Below, one piece after another: positions 23,370 through 27,913 of a stretch of DNA of 64,000 nucleotides (the first letter of the stretch is position 1; every line of letters begins with the position of its first letter). The translations under genes were made by a program, and so were the position numbers. Origin of the DNA: Escherichia phage D5505; sequence record MK327929.1. One strand, 5' to 3'. The notes beneath the pieces are model-generated. The model was not told where the DNA came from. It was given only the letters and a program-made list of their open reading frames with translations, and ran no database searches.

Positions 23370-23373
23370 CAAT

Positions 23374-23391
23374 GGGGACCTTTCGGTCCCC
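23374..23391. terminator. bidirectional terminator between gene 54 (+) and alt.-3-like gene (-)
   Basis: GGGGACC-TTTC-GGTCCCC stem-loop, A/T-rich both sides. Confidence 0.65.
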
Positions 23392-23397
23392 ATATTT

Positions 23398-23688
23398 TTA
23401 TTTACGGAATGAAATGAAAGCAGCAACTGAAGCAACTAAACTGTCTTCAATATAAACTTCAATTTTTACCGGAGCTTCTGACTCAAATTTACCTGTTACT
23501 ACACCCTGAAAAATACTTTCAGTCTGTTCTGGCTTTGAAAAATTTTCAGAAGGAAAAATTCCGAACTTTTTATCTGTTCCAAAAATTTTGATAAATTCAT
23601 CGTAAACTGCTTCATTAAAAGCATTATCAGCAGGAATAACGCCTTCAACTACAAGTTCTTGACCTAAAAAGCGCAAAGAAGATTTCAT
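23398..23688 (-). CDS. hypothetical protein (alt-downstream, alt.-3-like)
   Basis: 96-aa ORF with GAGGAA SD supplied by the 54-bp cassette. Confidence 0.55.
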   Translation of the reverse strand: MKSSLRFLGQELVVEGVIPADNAFNEAVYDEFIKIFGTDKKFGIFPSENFSKPEQTESIFQGVVTGKFESEAPVKIEVYIEDSLVASVAAFISFRK

Positions 23689-23695
23689 TTTGTGT

Positions 23696-23749
23696 TCCTC
23701 ATGTTATGTCAGTAAGACTACTATAACACAACACGAGGGACTTGTAAAC
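23696..23749 (-). promoter_or_regulatory. early promoter + RBS cassette, copy 1 (GTTTAC -35, TATAGT -10, GAGGA SD)
   Basis: 54 bp identical to 39620-39673; -35 hexamer abuts stop of upstream alt-like gene. Confidence 0.7.
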
Positions 23750-25806
23750 TACATCTTGAACTTTTTAGACATTCCGTTGATGTTAACCAAAGAAGCTAAG
23801 ATTTGAGAAACTTCGTTTTCCTCTTCTTTTGATTCTTCTACAAGGAATTGATTAAATCCAGCCATTGGACGAACTTCACCAGTTTCCATCAAATGATCGC
23901 CATCATATACTGATTCTTCTAATTGCTCAGAAGGAGGAACGATTGTACCTTCGATTAGATACTTGTTATAAGCAGTTTCTTTCATAAAGTAAGTACTTAC
24001 TTTATTAATCTTCAGTAAAATTCCACGCGGTAGAATAACTTCAGCTTCTGATGGAAATCCTGATAAATGACCCGGAACGATAACTTTGATTCGCTCAGCT
24101 CCTTTAATTACCATACCCACGCTAGTTTCAGCATCTTCATTAGCATATGTAGAATGACTACCCATATGCATCAAATCTTCTGCATCAACGGAACCTTCTC
24201 CTTCACCAGAAAATACTGCACCGGAATCATCTAGAGCCATATAGTTTTTACCATGCTCGCCGAAGATATTTGGTTTAAGCGATGTAGATACGAAGTTCTT
24301 GAAATAGAACATTTTGTTTTCAATGTTATGACGCAAAGTTTTAAAGGTAACTTCTTGTCCGCGATAAAGCGTAGTTCCTGGAGGAAGAACTGAACCTTTA
24401 GCGAATGCAGAATCCAACGTCTCGATGTGCTTAATAGCTCGTTCCATATATTCTTCACGGGTAGAATCTGGTTTACCCAAAAGGAACGAGTTCATTTCAA
24501 CATATGAATCTGCACAATAATCTTCAATTACATCAGATTCGGCCTGAGTCAGTCCTTTTGGAGTTACTTCAGTGCTTGCGTATTCATATGCCTGGGCAGC
24601 AGATTCATTAATCAATTTATAAATGCCATTCATGACAAATTGAATAATAGCTGTCTTTTCATCTGGCGTAGCTTTAGAACCTTTAACTAAATCATTAATA
24701 ATTTTCTTAATAACATCAAAGCTATTAGAAATATTAATGTCAGCAAGATCGCTTAAAATTTTATCAGTTTTATAATCAAAGAATTCTTTATTCTTTAAAT
24801 ATTCTTGAGAACCTTGATATGTTATATCGCTCTGCAACTTGATAGATGGATCACGTAAACGTGCATGGGCCAATGCAATATGATTTCGGAAGCTTTCTAG
24901 TTCATAATCGCTAGATTTAAAACGAGAAGCACTTCTCATACCACCGATAGCTCCTTTGCTGAAGTTTGAACCAATCTGGATAACGCCAGAGTTCATTGGT
25001 CCTTCTGCTTTATATACCGGAACTTTAGATTCAAACTCTTGATATTTCTTGGCAGCGAAGCTATCACCCTGTAGCGAAGCATCGACAGTAGAATATTGAG
25101 CTTGTGCTGCTAATCGACGACTAATTTTAGTTTTTTGAATAACAGCTTGATCCGTGCGCTTATCATTTTCTAAAGCAATAGAAGCAGCAACAGCGACAGC
25201 TTTAGGAACAGCATTACCTGTTTTAACATCTACATAAACATCACCGACCTTCGATTCAACTTTTGTGAATAACTCAGTTGAAATAGGAGGTACACCTGGA
25301 ATGTCTTCTAAATTGGCATTTTTACGGTAAACCATAATATATGCATACTTTTTATCATAGTCCCAGATTTCCTTTAAAAGAACATATCGACCTGCTCCTT
25401 TAGTACGTACTAAACGGTCAGCAATAACTTGCATTTGACGAGCAGCGCCATTTGTTTTACTCTTTAGTACGCGGAATAAGCATGCATCAATTTTATACTG
25501 TTTCATTGTTTGAAGAGCAGTATCAAAAACAGCGTTAATGACGCCAATTGGATTTCCACCCAAGTTTCTAAGTTTAACCAGTGATAATTTCTCGTTGACA
25601 CCTATCATTACGATATGCATCATTTTATCGCCCGGCTTAACGTTTTTATTTGTATCACCTCCAGAGGTGTATGTACAAAATCTAAATCCAGGAAGCACGC
25701 TTTCTTCGCCGGCTTGAATAGCAAAAATTTGAGGTATTTTATGCTTAGGATTTAAGTTAACAACCGGCGCCGAAGCGCCGTCAAATAATTCTGTAATAAG
25801 TTCCAT
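23749..25806 (-). CDS. Alt-like ADP-ribosyltransferase, paralogue 2
   Basis: 685-aa ORF; N-terminal half near-collinear with the adjacent 683-aa ORF; C-terminal R (LYRGQ), STS (FVSTSL), ExE (SEAEV) ART-type motifs. Confidence 0.75.
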   Translation of the reverse strand: MELITELFDGASAPVVNLNPKHKIPQIFAIQAGEESVLPGFRFCTYTSGGDTNKNVKPGDKMMHIVMIGVNEKLSLVKLRNLGGNPIGVINAVFDTALQTMKQYKIDACLFRVLKSKTNGAARQMQVIADRLVRTKGAGRYVLLKEIWDYDKKYAYIMVYRKNANLEDIPGVPPISTELFTKVESKVGDVYVDVKTGNAVPKAVAVAASIALENDKRTDQAVIQKTKISRRLAAQAQYSTVDASLQGDSFAAKKYQEFESKVPVYKAEGPMNSGVIQIGSNFSKGAIGGMRSASRFKSSDYELESFRNHIALAHARLRDPSIKLQSDITYQGSQEYLKNKEFFDYKTDKILSDLADINISNSFDVIKKIINDLVKGSKATPDEKTAIIQFVMNGIYKLINESAAQAYEYASTEVTPKGLTQAESDVIEDYCADSYVEMNSFLLGKPDSTREEYMERAIKHIETLDSAFAKGSVLPPGTTLYRGQEVTFKTLRHNIENKMFYFKNFVSTSLKPNIFGEHGKNYMALDDSGAVFSGEGEGSVDAEDLMHMGSHSTYANEDAETSVGMVIKGAERIKVIVPGHLSGFPSEAEVILPRGILLKINKVSTYFMKETAYNKYLIEGTIVPPSEQLEESVYDGDHLMETGEVRPMAGFNQFLVEESKEEENEVSQILASLVNINGMSKKFKM

Positions 25807-25809
25807 GAT

Positions 25810-27861
25810 TTATCCTTGAACGAACTTGTAAGGCATGTTTGCAATATCTATGCAAGACGCAATAATTCCAAGAGATGATTCTACTTTCTGTTTAACATTT
25901 GATGAAACAAATGATGCAAAGTCAACTCTATCTTCTATATCACCTGTCATTGTAACCAATTCACCAGTTTCCATTAAATGGTCTCCGTCATAGATTACCG
26001 ATTCGGTGAGTTCTTCTGTGGTCATAACTTCAGCTTGAATAAGCTTGTTGTTAGTTTTAACTGTTCCATCATTGTAAGATGCATCGGTTATTTTATTAAC
26101 TTTGACCATTAATCCACGTGGCAAAATGACTTCCATTTCATTTGAAGGTGCTAAACTTCCACCGGGTAAAACAACATTGACCTTATCAGCCCCAGTAATA
26201 ACCCATCCAATTCCAACTAAATTATCGCTAGAATTTACTAGTCCTTCATCAGTTTTATCAATAGAAACACTTAGACGCTTTTCGTCTGGTAAAACACCTA
26301 CAGATGAATCAGTCATCCAAGTACCAAAAATATTTGGATATAATGATGTTGACACAAAGTTTCTAAAATAAAAAACTCGATTTTTTACCATTGCTTCATA
26401 TATTGAAGGTAACATTCGTTGTGAACGATACAAAGTAATACCTTTTGGTAATCGTTCACCATTTTTAAAGGCTGAATCTAAATTATCAATAGCTTTTTCT
26501 ATGTCAGATGCTGTCAAAATACTTGTACGCTCATCTGGATTATATAATCCCAAAAGAGCATTATTTATATCTACATATCCTGAACCTACGTATTCACGAA
26601 TTCCGCGTTTTTGCGCCGGTGTGTATTTAGATGAATCTTTATTTTCGACTATAGGATGTAATGACCATCCAGCTGTAAGAGCATATCCACGTAATTCTCT
26701 TCGAATAATCTTTGTTTTTATTGCATTCCAAGAATTTTGTACTAACTCATTTGCAGCATCTTGATTTAAATGCGAATGTTTGTTAATATTTCTTTCAAAC
26801 CAAGCACCTTTATATTTTTCTAAAGTATCATCGACGATAGAAGCAATAGTTTCTAAAGTTTTTATTGAAGTAATAGATTCTTTTCGTAATCTTTCTAAAG
26901 CTTTATTTTTTATTTCTGTATTAACATCAGATTCTTTATCTTCAGGAATTATAGAAGCTTCTCTGAATGCCATTCCAGCTGTAACACTATTAAGAGCATT
27001 CTCTAATGCAAATCCTGAAGTAGAAATAACAGTTAATTCGTTAGCATCGGAAATTAAAGGCGCATCAGCGGGTTTATTTAATTCTGCTGCTGAAGCCTCA
27101 AATTTTTGAAACATCGGTGTTTCAAATCTAGAAGATTCCAATGATTGACTTTGCGCAATTGCTCTACGGGAAATTTTAACTTTAACGATTACAGCTTGGT
27201 CAGAACGTTTATCATTTTCTTGTGCAATAGATGCTGCAATTGCCTCATTTTTAGTTACTTGAGCTCCAGTATCTTTATTGATATAAACATCACCGACCTT
27301 CGATTCAACTTTAGTAAAGAGCTCGGTACTAATTTCTGGAACTCCTGGAATGTCTTCTAGTGATACATTTTTGCGATGTATAAGAATATATGCATACTTT
27401 TTATCATAATCCCAGAGTTCCTTAAGAAGGACGTATCTGCCACCTGAACGACTACGGATAAGTCTATCAGCAATAACTTGAATTTGTCGAGCTTGACCAG
27501 CGGTTTTAGACTTAAGAATACGGAGCATACAAGCATCAATTTTATATTGACGCATTGTTTGCATTGCAACAGTAAAAACTGAATTGATATAATTAATTGG
27601 GCTTGGCCCAAGACCTTTCAATTTAGCAATTGAACCTTTAGCGGTTAATGTAAAAGGAACAATATGCATCATTTTATCGCCCATTTTTAAATCGCGATTA
27701 GTATCACCTCCAGATGTATAGGTACATAAACGAAAGCCTGGCTGTTCAATTGCATCATCAACGTGAACTGAAAAAATTTGCGGTATTTTCTTCTTTGGAT
27801 TTAAGTTTGTAATCGGAAGAGTAGTATCTTCGTCAAATAATTCTGTAATGAGTTCCATCAT
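25810..27861 (-). CDS. alt: Alt ADP-ribosyltransferase (virion-packaged, modifies host RNA polymerase)
   Basis: 683-aa ORF (T4 Alt ~682 aa) adjacent to gene 30; R (LYRSQ), STS, ExE (NEMEV) motifs. Confidence 0.8.
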   Translation of the reverse strand: MMELITELFDEDTTLPITNLNPKKKIPQIFSVHVDDAIEQPGFRLCTYTSGGDTNRDLKMGDKMMHIVPFTLTAKGSIAKLKGLGPSPINYINSVFTVAMQTMRQYKIDACMLRILKSKTAGQARQIQVIADRLIRSRSGGRYVLLKELWDYDKKYAYILIHRKNVSLEDIPGVPEISTELFTKVESKVGDVYINKDTGAQVTKNEAIAASIAQENDKRSDQAVIVKVKISRRAIAQSQSLESSRFETPMFQKFEASAAELNKPADAPLISDANELTVISTSGFALENALNSVTAGMAFREASIIPEDKESDVNTEIKNKALERLRKESITSIKTLETIASIVDDTLEKYKGAWFERNINKHSHLNQDAANELVQNSWNAIKTKIIRRELRGYALTAGWSLHPIVENKDSSKYTPAQKRGIREYVGSGYVDINNALLGLYNPDERTSILTASDIEKAIDNLDSAFKNGERLPKGITLYRSQRMLPSIYEAMVKNRVFYFRNFVSTSLYPNIFGTWMTDSSVGVLPDEKRLSVSIDKTDEGLVNSSDNLVGIGWVITGADKVNVVLPGGSLAPSNEMEVILPRGLMVKVNKITDASYNDGTVKTNNKLIQAEVMTTEELTESVIYDGDHLMETGELVTMTGDIEDRVDFASFVSSNVKQKVESSLGIIASCIDIANMPYKFVQG

Positions 27862-27895
27862 ATCCTCTCTAGTGTTTATTCTATTTATAAAATTA

Positions 27896-27913
27896 AAGGC
27901 CCGAAGGCCTTTA
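27896..27913 (-). terminator. stem-loop AAAGGCC-TTCG-GGCCTTT overlapping stop of upstream small gene
   Basis: 7-bp perfect stem with UUCG loop between small ORF and alt. Confidence 0.45.

Follow-up and report, generated by a model that had tools for sequence, protein, structure and literature searches.

Organization of the alt locus

The stretch of DNA analysed (the window) comprises 64,000 nucleotides of Escherichia phage D5505 (sequence record MK327929.1), in which two adjacent genes on the minus strand, named A and B below, encode ADP-ribosyltransferases (ARTs) of the Alt family. The elements of the locus, from upstream to downstream, are:

27895..27912, minus strand: terminator-like hairpin separating alt.1 from alt (AAAGGCC-TTCG-GGCCTTT, then a T-rich tail), read from the sequence
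27882..27889, minus strand: T4 late-promoter consensus TATAAATA, ~23 nt before the start codon of alt
25810..27858, minus strand: gene A, which is alt, 682 aa when begun at the second ATG (most likely start); the maximal ORF reaches 27861
27145..27858, minus strand: N-terminal domain of A, codons 1-238, Pfam PF26846 Tevenvirinae_ADPRT
26002..26661, minus strand: ART domain of A, codons 400-619, T4-type effector module
23749..25806, minus strand: gene B (685 aa), a second ART of the Alt family and the intact counterpart of T4 alt.-1/alt.-2
25093..25806, minus strand: N-terminal domain of B, codons 1-238, alpha/beta fold, including the propeptide site MELITE/L (the slash marks the cut)
24577..25092, minus strand: helical middle region of B, codons 239-410
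23914..24576, minus strand: ART domain of B, codons 411-631
24361-24363, 24280-24288 and 24040-24048, minus strand: catalytic residues of B, R482, S507-T-S509 and E587-A-E589, respectively
23752..23913, minus strand: C-terminal propeptide of B, codons 632-685, after the predicted gp21 site LEE-631/S
23760..25458, minus strand: segment of 1,699 bp deleted in T4, bounded by 9-nt near-repeats
23720..23748, minus strand: sigma-70/T4-early-type promoter (TTTACA, 17-nt spacer, TATAGT, extended TG) directly after the B stop codon
23398..23688, minus strand: alt.-3, 96 aa, DUF5498, the downstream neighbour

The ORF listing confirmed the two minus-strand frames that had been noticed from the letters alone, of 685 aa (23749..25806) and 683 aa (25810..27861), and the 3-nt gap between them could be read directly (...GGA TAA atc ATG GAA...); all peptide strings quoted in that sequence-only reading were found in the translations of A and B. 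The start of gene A is most likely the second ATG (27858), giving 682 aa rather than 683, because the T4 annotation uses the same codon, its spacing to GAGG is better and it is the sole start yielding both the MELITE N-terminus common to B and the published ITE-6 numbering. The Shine-Dalgarno sequence of B (AAGGA) sits within the end of A.

The pair is placed as in the T4 Alt family, between DNA ligase/alt.1 and alt.-3/gene 54 with a late promoter upstream. The window contains the late-promoter consensus 19 times, where 8.6 occurrences would be expected. The arrangement of TATAAATA and alt is identical in T4, which also has the same terminator-like hairpin between alt.1 and alt; a conserved terminator upstream of alt has been reported (Nolan 2006; PMC1524935). 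The TATAAATA promoter presumably serves both A and B: no promoter of its own was found for B within the 3-nt gap, so its expression would depend on read-through from alt. The promoter that follows B is kept in T4 and in the genomes with fused genes described below, and presumably drives alt.-3, which was conserved downstream in all locus states examined.

A and B are Alt-family ADP-ribosyltransferases

Gene A was 99.0% identical to T4 Alt. A and B were 41% identical over their full length (BLASTP, E = 5e-160), both matched PF03496 (ADPrib_exo_Tox) above the Pfam cut-off of 23.4 bits, with 123.3 bits for A and 71.9 bits for B, and both aligned over their whole length with PHROG 802 ('Alt-like RNA polymerase ADP-ribosyltransferase'). 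Their homologs carry PF26846 and PF03496 in precomputed annotations. Both proteins are therefore confirmed as Alt-family ARTs. Alt owes its name to the ADP-ribosylation of RNA polymerase alpha; for B, whose ART domain and ARTT loop differ from those of Alt (see below), the mention of RNA polymerase is a database label and its target putative. Public records, RefSeq included, already label both proteins as Alt-like ARTs in hundreds of phage genomes, and the T4 record mentions a duplication remnant; B is thus an uncharacterised paralog, and the gene pair is neither a discovery nor a new kind of system.

The N-terminal halves of the two proteins had been described as closely related, and this close relation stands for the N-terminal third (residues 1-238, 68% identity) but does not extend to half of the protein, as residues 239-410 were about 17-25% identical, varying with the alignment, and the ART domains about 36-38%. 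The middle region of B was 44% identical to the Dhakavirus slot-2 protein, and the N-terminal domain of A was 100% identical to that of the T2 slot-1 protein ('slot' meaning the first or second position of the pair). The shared GDHLMETGE segment is indeed present near the C-terminus, but it lies outside the mature enzyme, in the C-terminal propeptide, 3-4 residues past the prohead-protease site. In B this propeptide contains the family-invariant motif Y-D-G-D-x-L-x-E-T-G-E and, close to the C-terminus, a K-F motif.

Alignment with T4 Alt, ModA and ModB upheld the proposal that R, S-T-S and E-x-E are kept in both proteins. These residues are R478, S503-T-S505 and E574-M-E576 in A, and R482, S507/S509 and E587/E589 in B, the latter invariant in 18 of 18 family members. 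E587/E589 of B aligned to E163/E165 of ModA, and activity is abolished by the substitutions E577A in Alt and E165A in ModA (PMC11404850).

The assignment of an ART domain to B was also borne out by structure prediction. Foldseek matched the AF2 model (pLDDT 74, pTM 0.68) at probability 1.00 to the solved structures of Vis, C3, CDTa, VIP2, iota and Certhrax; E-values lay between 1e-7 and 1e-5, and the TM to target was 0.58-0.67. The best match was the Vis toxin, crystallised with agmatine; residues 516-554 form a variable loop of low confidence in the model. B is accordingly modelled as a C3/Vis-like ART, sharing fold and active-site layout with C3bot/C3cer, Vis, VIP2, iota Ia, CDTa and Certhrax; it differs from these C3-like and binary toxins in sequence (15-20% identity), and they are bacterial exotoxins with eukaryotic targets and other delivery domains.

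The ARTT substrate-recognition loop of the Alt family aligned to Y-P-G-Q-Y-E of C3cer. In B the loop reads F-P-S-E-A-E, fits the toxin motif [YF]-x-x-[QE]-x-E and keeps the canonical aromatic residue, which is absent from T4 Alt (P-S-N-E-M-E) and from A (LAPSNEME).

With T4 Alt, the RNA polymerase ADP-ribosyltransferase that is packaged in the head and injected, B shares the whole architecture (PF26846 N-domain, helical middle, PF03496 ART domain and C-propeptide), the R-S-ExE residues and both gp21 motifs. It also occupies the same place, between alt.1 and alt.-3 in the context of a late promoter, and differs in the ART domain, about 36-38% identical. ModA and ModB belong to the same R-S-E clade, with catalytic R, S-x-S and E-x-E aligned to those of B; unlike B, they are early, non-packaged ARTs of 200 and 207 aa that consist of the ART domain only, without N-domain, middle region or propeptides, and are encoded in another genome region.

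Distribution, age and loss of gene B

Intact B was found in about 396 phage records at at least 95% identity, T2 included, which makes T4 the minority state. The BASEL phage WilhelmHis is, like T2, a phage with both genes. Whether T4 alt.-2 is an equivalent paralogue had been left undecided in the sequence-only reading, and it is not: alt.-1 and alt.-2 together are the 5' remnant of B, produced by a deletion of 1,699 bp between two near-repeats, CTAAAGAGT at nt 340-348 of B and CTAAAAAGT at nt 2039-2047, and carrying in addition a 1-nt frameshift. The T4-type deletion was present in about a fifth (6/30) of evenly sampled Tequatrovirus rows, and B with an 8-bp insertion frameshift in at least 16 contigs. 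This repeated loss suggests that, on some hosts at least, the phage can do without B.

Fusions of the two genes (A::B) have arisen independently at least five times, in ECML-134 and PST among others; in them the promoter and N-domain of A are followed by the middle region, ART domain and propeptide of B. All mapped breakpoints fell within the N-terminal domain region, the B part was still strongly constrained, and in the complete genomes of ECML-134, SCS4 and PST the fusion is the sole Alt-family gene. Slot 1 itself occurs with either of two effector modules, T4-type and T2-type, that have been swapped for each other, and in about two thirds of sequenced Tequatroviruses the module is other than that of T4.

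The tandem pair with its 3-nt gap was present also in Dhakavirus dhabil and in one divergent metagenomic phage. The ART domains grouped by slot (58-61% identity between orthologs, 35-37% between paralogs), whereas the N-terminal domains grouped by genome (64-68% within, 46-47% between). By these sequence comparisons the A/B pair is older than the split between Tequatrovirus and Dhakavirus, and dS between A and B was saturated in every segment, which points to an old duplication with no recent gene conversion.

B is under strong purifying selection, with dN/dS against its orthologs of 0.02-0.04 overall, 0.00-0.04 in the ART domain and 0.01 in the N-terminal domain, at dS 0.14-0.32; the value for A against T4 alt was 0.05. 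The independent losses by deletion and 8-bp frameshift would favour the reading that B has lost its activity or is decaying and is heading for loss, as happened in T4, but this reading is largely refuted by this selection analysis and has hardly any probability left, given the intact copies in about 396 records, the retention of all catalytic residues, the conservation of B in Dhakavirus and its service as sole effector in the fusion genomes.

Predicted expression, processing and packaging of B

T4 Alt is cleaved at ITE-6 and LTE-619, as mapped experimentally (PMC5694885). Gene A has both sites, and its predicted mature product (residues 7-619) has 68.2 kDa, matching the value measured in the same study. 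The first 9 residues of B are those of Alt, so that the N-terminus MELITE/LFD with ITE-6 is common to both, and the motif LEE-631 of B (Leu-x-Glu/Ser) aligned to LTE-619 of Alt. The P1 residues of both sites of B, E6 and E631, were invariant in the 18 family members, and both predicted cleavage sites lie in low-pLDDT, probably exposed segments of the model.

From this N-terminus, the Leu-x-Glu/Ser site, the conserved N-domain and the geometry of co-transcription behind the late promoter of alt, we infer, indirectly, that B is packaged in the head; its expression, processing and enzymatic activity are likewise predicted from sequence. The literature searched contained no transcript, virion-proteome or enzymatic report on B.

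Proposed role of B and alternatives

To our knowledge, injected phage ADP-ribosyltransferases are known almost entirely through T4 Alt, and T4 is atypical at this locus, since about 80% of sequenced Tequatroviruses, T2 included, have a second intact, strongly constrained Alt-type enzyme that is deleted in T4. The reading we consider probable is that gene B is a functional second enzyme of this type, a packaged and injected arginine-specific mono-ADP-ribosyltransferase, most likely with a target set of its own. B would be expressed as a late gene from the TATAAATA promoter, on a transcript shared with alt, its N-domain and short N-terminal propeptide would take it into the prohead core, and the gp21 prohead protease would cut it at ITE-6 and LEE-631 to a product of ~69 kDa, which would be injected along with the DNA and ADP-ribosylate host proteins. 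If so, most T-even phages would bring one more activity to the early chemistry of host takeover.

A difference in targets between B and T4 Alt is plausible, and even the most likely case, because the ART domain of B belongs to a separate, anciently kept lineage and has a different ARTT loop, the grounds being domain divergence and this one loop. As T4 Alt itself modifies many proteins, its targets and those of B may overlap. B might instead be a redundant back-up of Alt, packaged and active on essentially the same targets (RNA polymerase alpha and others) for dosage or robustness, as could be argued from the identical architecture, catalytic motifs and processing sites and from the loss of either effector in nature, T4 being without B and ECML-134 and PST without the slot-1 effector. 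We regard this as unlikely, given that the two ART types are distinct and each conserved across genera, that the ARTT loops and the middle regions differ, and that the long upkeep of both genes at dN/dS 0.02-0.05 is not expected from simple redundancy.

The packaging step could also fail to apply, with B made but acting in the producing cell like ModA/ModB, or serving mainly as a component of the prohead core. The frameshift variant, in which the N-domain is split from the ART domain and which still persists in several samples, would agree with such a role; it is nevertheless quite improbable, as the N-domain, the N-propeptide and the glutamates of both gp21 sites are as strictly conserved as those of Alt, fusions with the N-domain of A are viable and conserved, and ModA and ModB lack such an N-domain altogether.

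As to the reaction, arginine-specific protein ARTs are characterised by E-x-E together with a canonical ARTT loop. We therefore give very little probability to the alternative that the ART domain of B has a substrate other than protein or an unusual one (RNA, DNA, a small molecule) or uses NAD-capped RNA, even though its best structural match, Vis, was crystallised with agmatine and the T4 paralog ModB reportedly RNAylates proteins using NAD-capped RNA (bioRxiv 10.1101/2021.06.04.446905); nor was a nucleic-acid-binding domain detected in B by family-profile searches, Pfam and PHROG included.

In the same probable reading, the locus as a whole behaves as two slots. Each slot combines a lineage-specific delivery domain, an exchangeable 'warhead' made of middle region plus ART domain, and a conserved C-propeptide, and recombination in the conserved parts deletes, fuses or swaps warheads. 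The more far-reaching proposal is that the locus is a two-slot cassette for injected effectors, with at least three warhead types (T4-, T2- and B-type) in Tequatroviruses and a delivery fold that in unrelated phages may be joined to effectors other than ARTs; B would then be injected, act on host targets of its own and possibly have an anti-defence role. This is conceivable but rather doubtful as a whole. If true, B could contribute to the differences between T2 and T4 in host takeover and defence sensitivity.

The same logic, a conserved delivery module with C-terminal effectors varied by recombination, has been described for polymorphic-toxin-like and MuF-fused head-packaged effectors (Iyer et al. 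2017, PMC5512222; Iyer et al. 2022, PMC9503650). Its counterparts at the alt locus are the module swaps in slot 1, the A::B fusions, and otherwise unrelated phage proteins that resemble the N-domain in structure and are annotated as having other effector domains; these relatives are known here as Foldseek hits without coordinates only. In contrast to the MuF-fused effectors, the Alt N-domain is not MuF, and Alt-family ARTs have been placed outside the genuine polyvalent proteins (PMC5512222). The natural fusions, with the B warhead only, and T4, with the T4-type Alt warhead only, are ready genetic controls.

Tandem Alt-like genes in phage D5505

The sequence-only reading had described two Alt-like ADP-ribosyltransferase (ART) genes lying 3 nt apart on the minus strand, and the analysis confirmed this. 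The ORF listing of the window gave neighbouring minus-strand ORFs of 685 aa (23749..25806, hereafter B or slot 2) and 683 aa (25810..27861, hereafter A or slot 1), joined as TAA-atc-ATG. Their products are 41% identical over the full length by BLASTP (E = 5e-160), each aligns with PHROG 802 ('Alt-like RNA polymerase ADP-ribosyltransferase') along its whole length, and both exceed the Pfam cut-off of 23.4 bits for PF03496 (ADPrib_exo_Tox), with 123.3 bits for A and 71.9 for B; no family was matched in NCBIfam. The neighbouring genes (gp29, gp48, gp54, alt.-3/DUF5498, alt.1 and DNA ligase) identify the window as T4-like, and several Tequatrovirus genomes, e.g. vB_EcoM-CHD94UKE2 and WilhelmHis (MZ501113), carry the 4.9-kb A/B region at 99.5% identity; WilhelmHis, which has a K-12 host, shares the A+B combination of the window.

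A is T4 alt itself, with 7 differences in 682 residues (99.0% identity); B is 41% identical to T4 Alt. The ATGATG at the start of A is shared by T4, in which the second ATG is annotated as start; 25810..27858 (682 aa) is the preferred extent of A, as the second ATG provides the MELITE N-terminus and a better spacing to the SD sequence.

In many RefSeq records both genes already carry the annotation 'Alt-like RNA polymerase ADP-ribosyltransferase', and alt.-1/alt.-2 have been described as paralogous to alt, with a full-length duplicate in phage 44RR (Nolan et al., 2006, PMC1524935). In the literature searched, B receives a single line in Nolan 2006; studies of its function, proteomics or evolution were not found, nor was virion proteomics of phages with two alt genes. 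B is thus an uncharacterised member of a known family, and its 'RNA polymerase' label is putative. The overall observation of the sequence-only reading was confirmed, and its interpretation as two active, packaged ARTs of potentially different specificity is supported by indirect evidence. Nothing in it is categorically new; it marks a concrete, easily testable gap in a model system, to which the present analysis adds a resolution of the T4 question, evidence that two ART types are anciently maintained and a locus that is modular and recombining.

T4 alt.-1 and alt.-2 as a remnant of B

It had been left open whether T4 alt.-2 is an equivalent paralogue, and the alignments answer in the negative. 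T4 alt.-1 matches B residues 1-56 at 95% and alt.-2 matches B residues 62-116 at 96%, far above their 58-62% match to A. DNA alignment located two lesions in the T4 copy of B, the loss of 1 nt from an A-run at B codon ~54 and that of 1,699 bp bounded by a pair of 9-nt near-repeats:

B nt 340-348, near-repeat bounding the T4 deletion, CTAAAGAGT
B nt 2039-2047, near-repeat bounding the T4 deletion, CTAAAAAGT

Given the far better match to B and these two lesions, what the T4 RefSeq record notes as an 'old duplication of the first part of gene alt' is more aptly seen as what is left of a full-length paralog, B.

Conservation of the catalytic domain of B

The sequence-only reading had also noted that both ARTs keep the R / STS / ExE motifs. 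These are in register across A, B, ModA and ModB, and R482, S507, S509, E587 and E589 of B are invariant among 18 family sequences. Mutants show that the second Glu of E-x-E is required for activity: Alt E577A (a numbering that apparently counts from the first ATG) and ModA E165A (PMC11404850).

In the AlphaFold2 model of B (mean pLDDT 74, pTM 0.68), an alpha/beta N-domain (~15-200) is followed by a helical middle region (~200-470) and then by an ART domain (~480-625). In Foldseek searches the latter matched Vis, C3, CDTa, VIP2, iota and Certhrax (probability 1.00, TM to target 0.58-0.67). A PDB sequence search with B and family profiles gave no full-length relative, weak matches in the ART domain only and none in the N-domain. 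Compared with Tequatrovirus orthologs, B showed a dN/dS of 0.02-0.04 overall and 0.00-0.04 in the ART domain (dS 0.14-0.32), a constraint as strong as that on A (dN/dS = 0.05 against T4 alt). Therefore, with its catalytic residues kept, an ART fold predicted and purifying dN/dS values, genomes that retain B do not carry it as a decaying copy.

Predicted processing of B and the C-terminal propeptide

Mass spectrometry of T4 Alt showed a 68.2-kDa protein, trimmed by 6 residues at the N-terminus (ITE-6) and by 63 at the C-terminus (LTE-619) (Ali et al., 2017, PMC5694885), and residues 7-619 of A compute to 68.2 kDa. The N-terminus of B, MELITELFD, is identical to that of A; LEE-631↓S of B aligns with LTE-619↓S of Alt (arrow, cleavage), and the P1 glutamates E6 and E631 are invariant across the 18 aligned family sequences. 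We infer that B is likewise packaged and processed by the prohead protease gp21, with a predicted mature mass of 69.1 kDa. Both putative cleavage sites fall in the lowest-confidence segments of the model and are presumably exposed. The putative gp21-removed C-terminal propeptides are encoded at:

23752-23913, propeptide of B
25813-26001, propeptide of A

The segment GDHLMETGE had been singled out as conserved near the C-terminus; that much stood, and its placing has to be refined, as it lies within the propeptide just past the C-terminal cleavage site. The motif E↓S-x-(x)-Y-D-G-D-x-L-x-E-T-G-E and a near-C-terminal K-F are invariant across paralogs and genera. As its Y-D-G-D-x-L-x-E-T-G-E part and the terminal K-F show a conservation as strict as that of the active site, the propeptide is suggested to have a role of its own, e.g. 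in targeting, tethering or autoinhibition, a question raised for Alt by Ali et al. (PMC5694885). In the model, residues 630-663 of B are predicted to be disordered, with a helix at 660-672.

For the N-domain, a lenient Pfam scan gave no meaningful match. The domain has an invariant K117-x-x-G120-x-[AG] loop, which might correspond to GNAT motif A. A Foldseek search of predicted viral structures found the fold of the domain in unrelated phages (probability 1.00, TM to query 0.4-0.58, 10-18% identity), in large proteins that are uncharacterised and of which some bear annotated Zeta-toxin, deaminase or ParB/Srx domains. These model-based matches are a lead, and no demonstration, that the domain may be a general delivery module.

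Distribution of B and A::B fusion genes

Intact B was detected by tblastn in 396 phage records at >=95% identity, including T2, RB6, RB7, PP01, AR1 and HP3. In an evenly spaced sample of Tequatrovirus records, B was intact in 23 of 30 and carried the T4-type deletion in 6 of 30; the deletion was counted with the remnant as query, 84% of which also matches intact B, so that only this split in the evenly sampled rows is usable.

In a further lineage, B is frameshifted by an 8-bp insertion at nt 770 (L014:3183-5248, and the compared loci L015 and L016). The insertion leaves two ORFs, one of 273 aa with the N-domain and one of 415 aa with the middle region plus ART. At least 16 contigs, from different samples, have this variant, which could be a pseudogene or encode an unpackaged ART.

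In other phages, a single gene between alt.1 and alt.-3 joins the N-terminus of A to the rest of B. Such fusions were found in the complete genomes of ECML-134 (L011:2501-4561), SCS4 and Yersinia phage PST (L012:2501-4561), and on metagenomic contigs. In every fusion the switch from A to B is clean and single, and it lies in the N-domain (codons 48-223); two breakpoints fall in the longest stretches of A/B identity, which measure 24 and 30 nt.

Table. Breakpoints of A::B fusion genes (locus; protein; codons)
L018; P0003; 48-53
PST; –; 99-103
L009; P0004; 103-104
ECML-134; –; 150-159
L019; P0005; 182-193
L008; P0006; 220-223

Fusions of this kind are what unequal crossover of tandem repeats is expected to yield, and the event has occurred at least five times. 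Assembly artefact was considered for P0003-P0006, as the longest exact A/B match (30 nt) equals k-1 for assemblers with k = 31 and two of the contigs stop just beyond the gene. It was rejected as a general explanation because fusions occur in the complete, independently sequenced genomes of ECML-134, SCS4 and PST, and fusion contigs of 65 kb and 110 kb span both flanks; the L019 fusion, with its breakpoint within the 30-nt tract, is individually uncertain. Gene conversion with both genes retained is unsupported, a single gene being present in every case examined. In the phages with a fusion, the ART of B belongs to the sole Alt-family warhead (middle region plus ART domain), and the B part is still under strong constraint.

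Age and divergence of the two ART types

Tandem pairs with the same 3-nt spacing and flanking genes are present in Dhakavirus dhabil (686 and 707 aa) and in the divergent metagenomic phage L010 (697 and 694 aa).

Table. Identity among slot-1 and slot-2 proteins by domain (domain; orthologs across genera; within-genome paralogs)
ART domain; 61% (Tequatrovirus A/Dhakavirus slot 1), 58% (Tequatrovirus B/Dhakavirus slot 2); 35-37%
N-terminal domain; 46-47%; 64-68%

Because ART identity is higher between orthologs than between paralogs, the two ART types have been separately maintained since before the Tequatrovirus/Dhakavirus divergence, and their being kept apart is the strongest available argument that A and B may have non-redundant functions. 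In a profile-to-PDB alignment, the ARTT loop of the family aligns on Y-P-G-Q-Y-E of C3cer; the canonical aromatic (F/Y-x-x-E-x-E) is kept in B-type proteins and lost in the T4 Alt clade (P-S-N-E-M-E).

The N-terminal domain evolves in concert within each genome, through either old recombination or co-adaptation to the phage's own head core. Recent gene conversion was rejected as the source of this similarity, as A/B synonymous divergence is saturated in every segment, N-domain included (pS 0.55-0.68), and the A/B N-domain split is older than the L010 lineage.

Module polymorphism in slot 1

The slot-1 gene of T2 (697 aa) is 97-99% identical to A in nucleotide sequence over codons 1-239 and again from codon ~614, whereas the central block (window 26002-27144, A middle region plus ART, compared with L017:1618-2805 of T2) is 44-72% identical, corresponding to 33% protein identity in the middle region and 64% in the ART domain. 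This T2 block is closer to the Dhakavirus slot-1 protein (81% aa identity in the ART domain). At >=95% identity, the T2-type module was found in 313 records and the T4-type in 172, so the T4 configuration, a T4-type module with a deleted B, is a minority; the window combines a T4-type module with intact B.

Transcription signals around the pair

The following signals and adjacent gene were located:

27882-27889, late-promoter consensus TATAAATA upstream of A
26562-26569 (-), TATAAATA inside A, ~750 nt upstream of B
23720-23748 (-), strong early-type promoter (TTTACA, 17-nt spacer, TATAGT, extended TG), beginning right after the B stop
23398-23688 (-), alt.-3 (DUF5498, 96 aa)
23372-23393, perfect 9-bp-stem hairpin between convergent gene 54 (+) and alt.-3 (-)

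The late promoter consensus upstream of A follows a terminator-like hairpin, an arrangement also present in T4, and the AAGGA SD sequence of B sits within the end of A. As a late promoter precedes A, and B follows 3 nt on with its SD inside A, co-transcription of both genes late in infection is the simplest reading. The window holds 19 copies of TATAAATA against 8.6 expected, an excess that fits late promoters; the copy inside A may be a separate late promoter for B or may have arisen by chance.

The early-type promoter presumably drives alt.-3, which is kept in every locus state seen. The T4 deletion ends ~12 nt upstream of this promoter and leaves it intact. In ECML-134, a 54-nt stretch elsewhere in the genome, at an unannotated place (NC_025449.1 134461-134514), shares 98% identity with the sequence that directly follows T4 alt.-2, which is the alt.-3 promoter region. 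The hairpin beyond alt.-3 scores as a terminator on both strands, consistent with a bidirectional terminator between converging transcripts, as described for T4-like genomes generally, not this pair specifically (Nolan 2006, PMC1524935).
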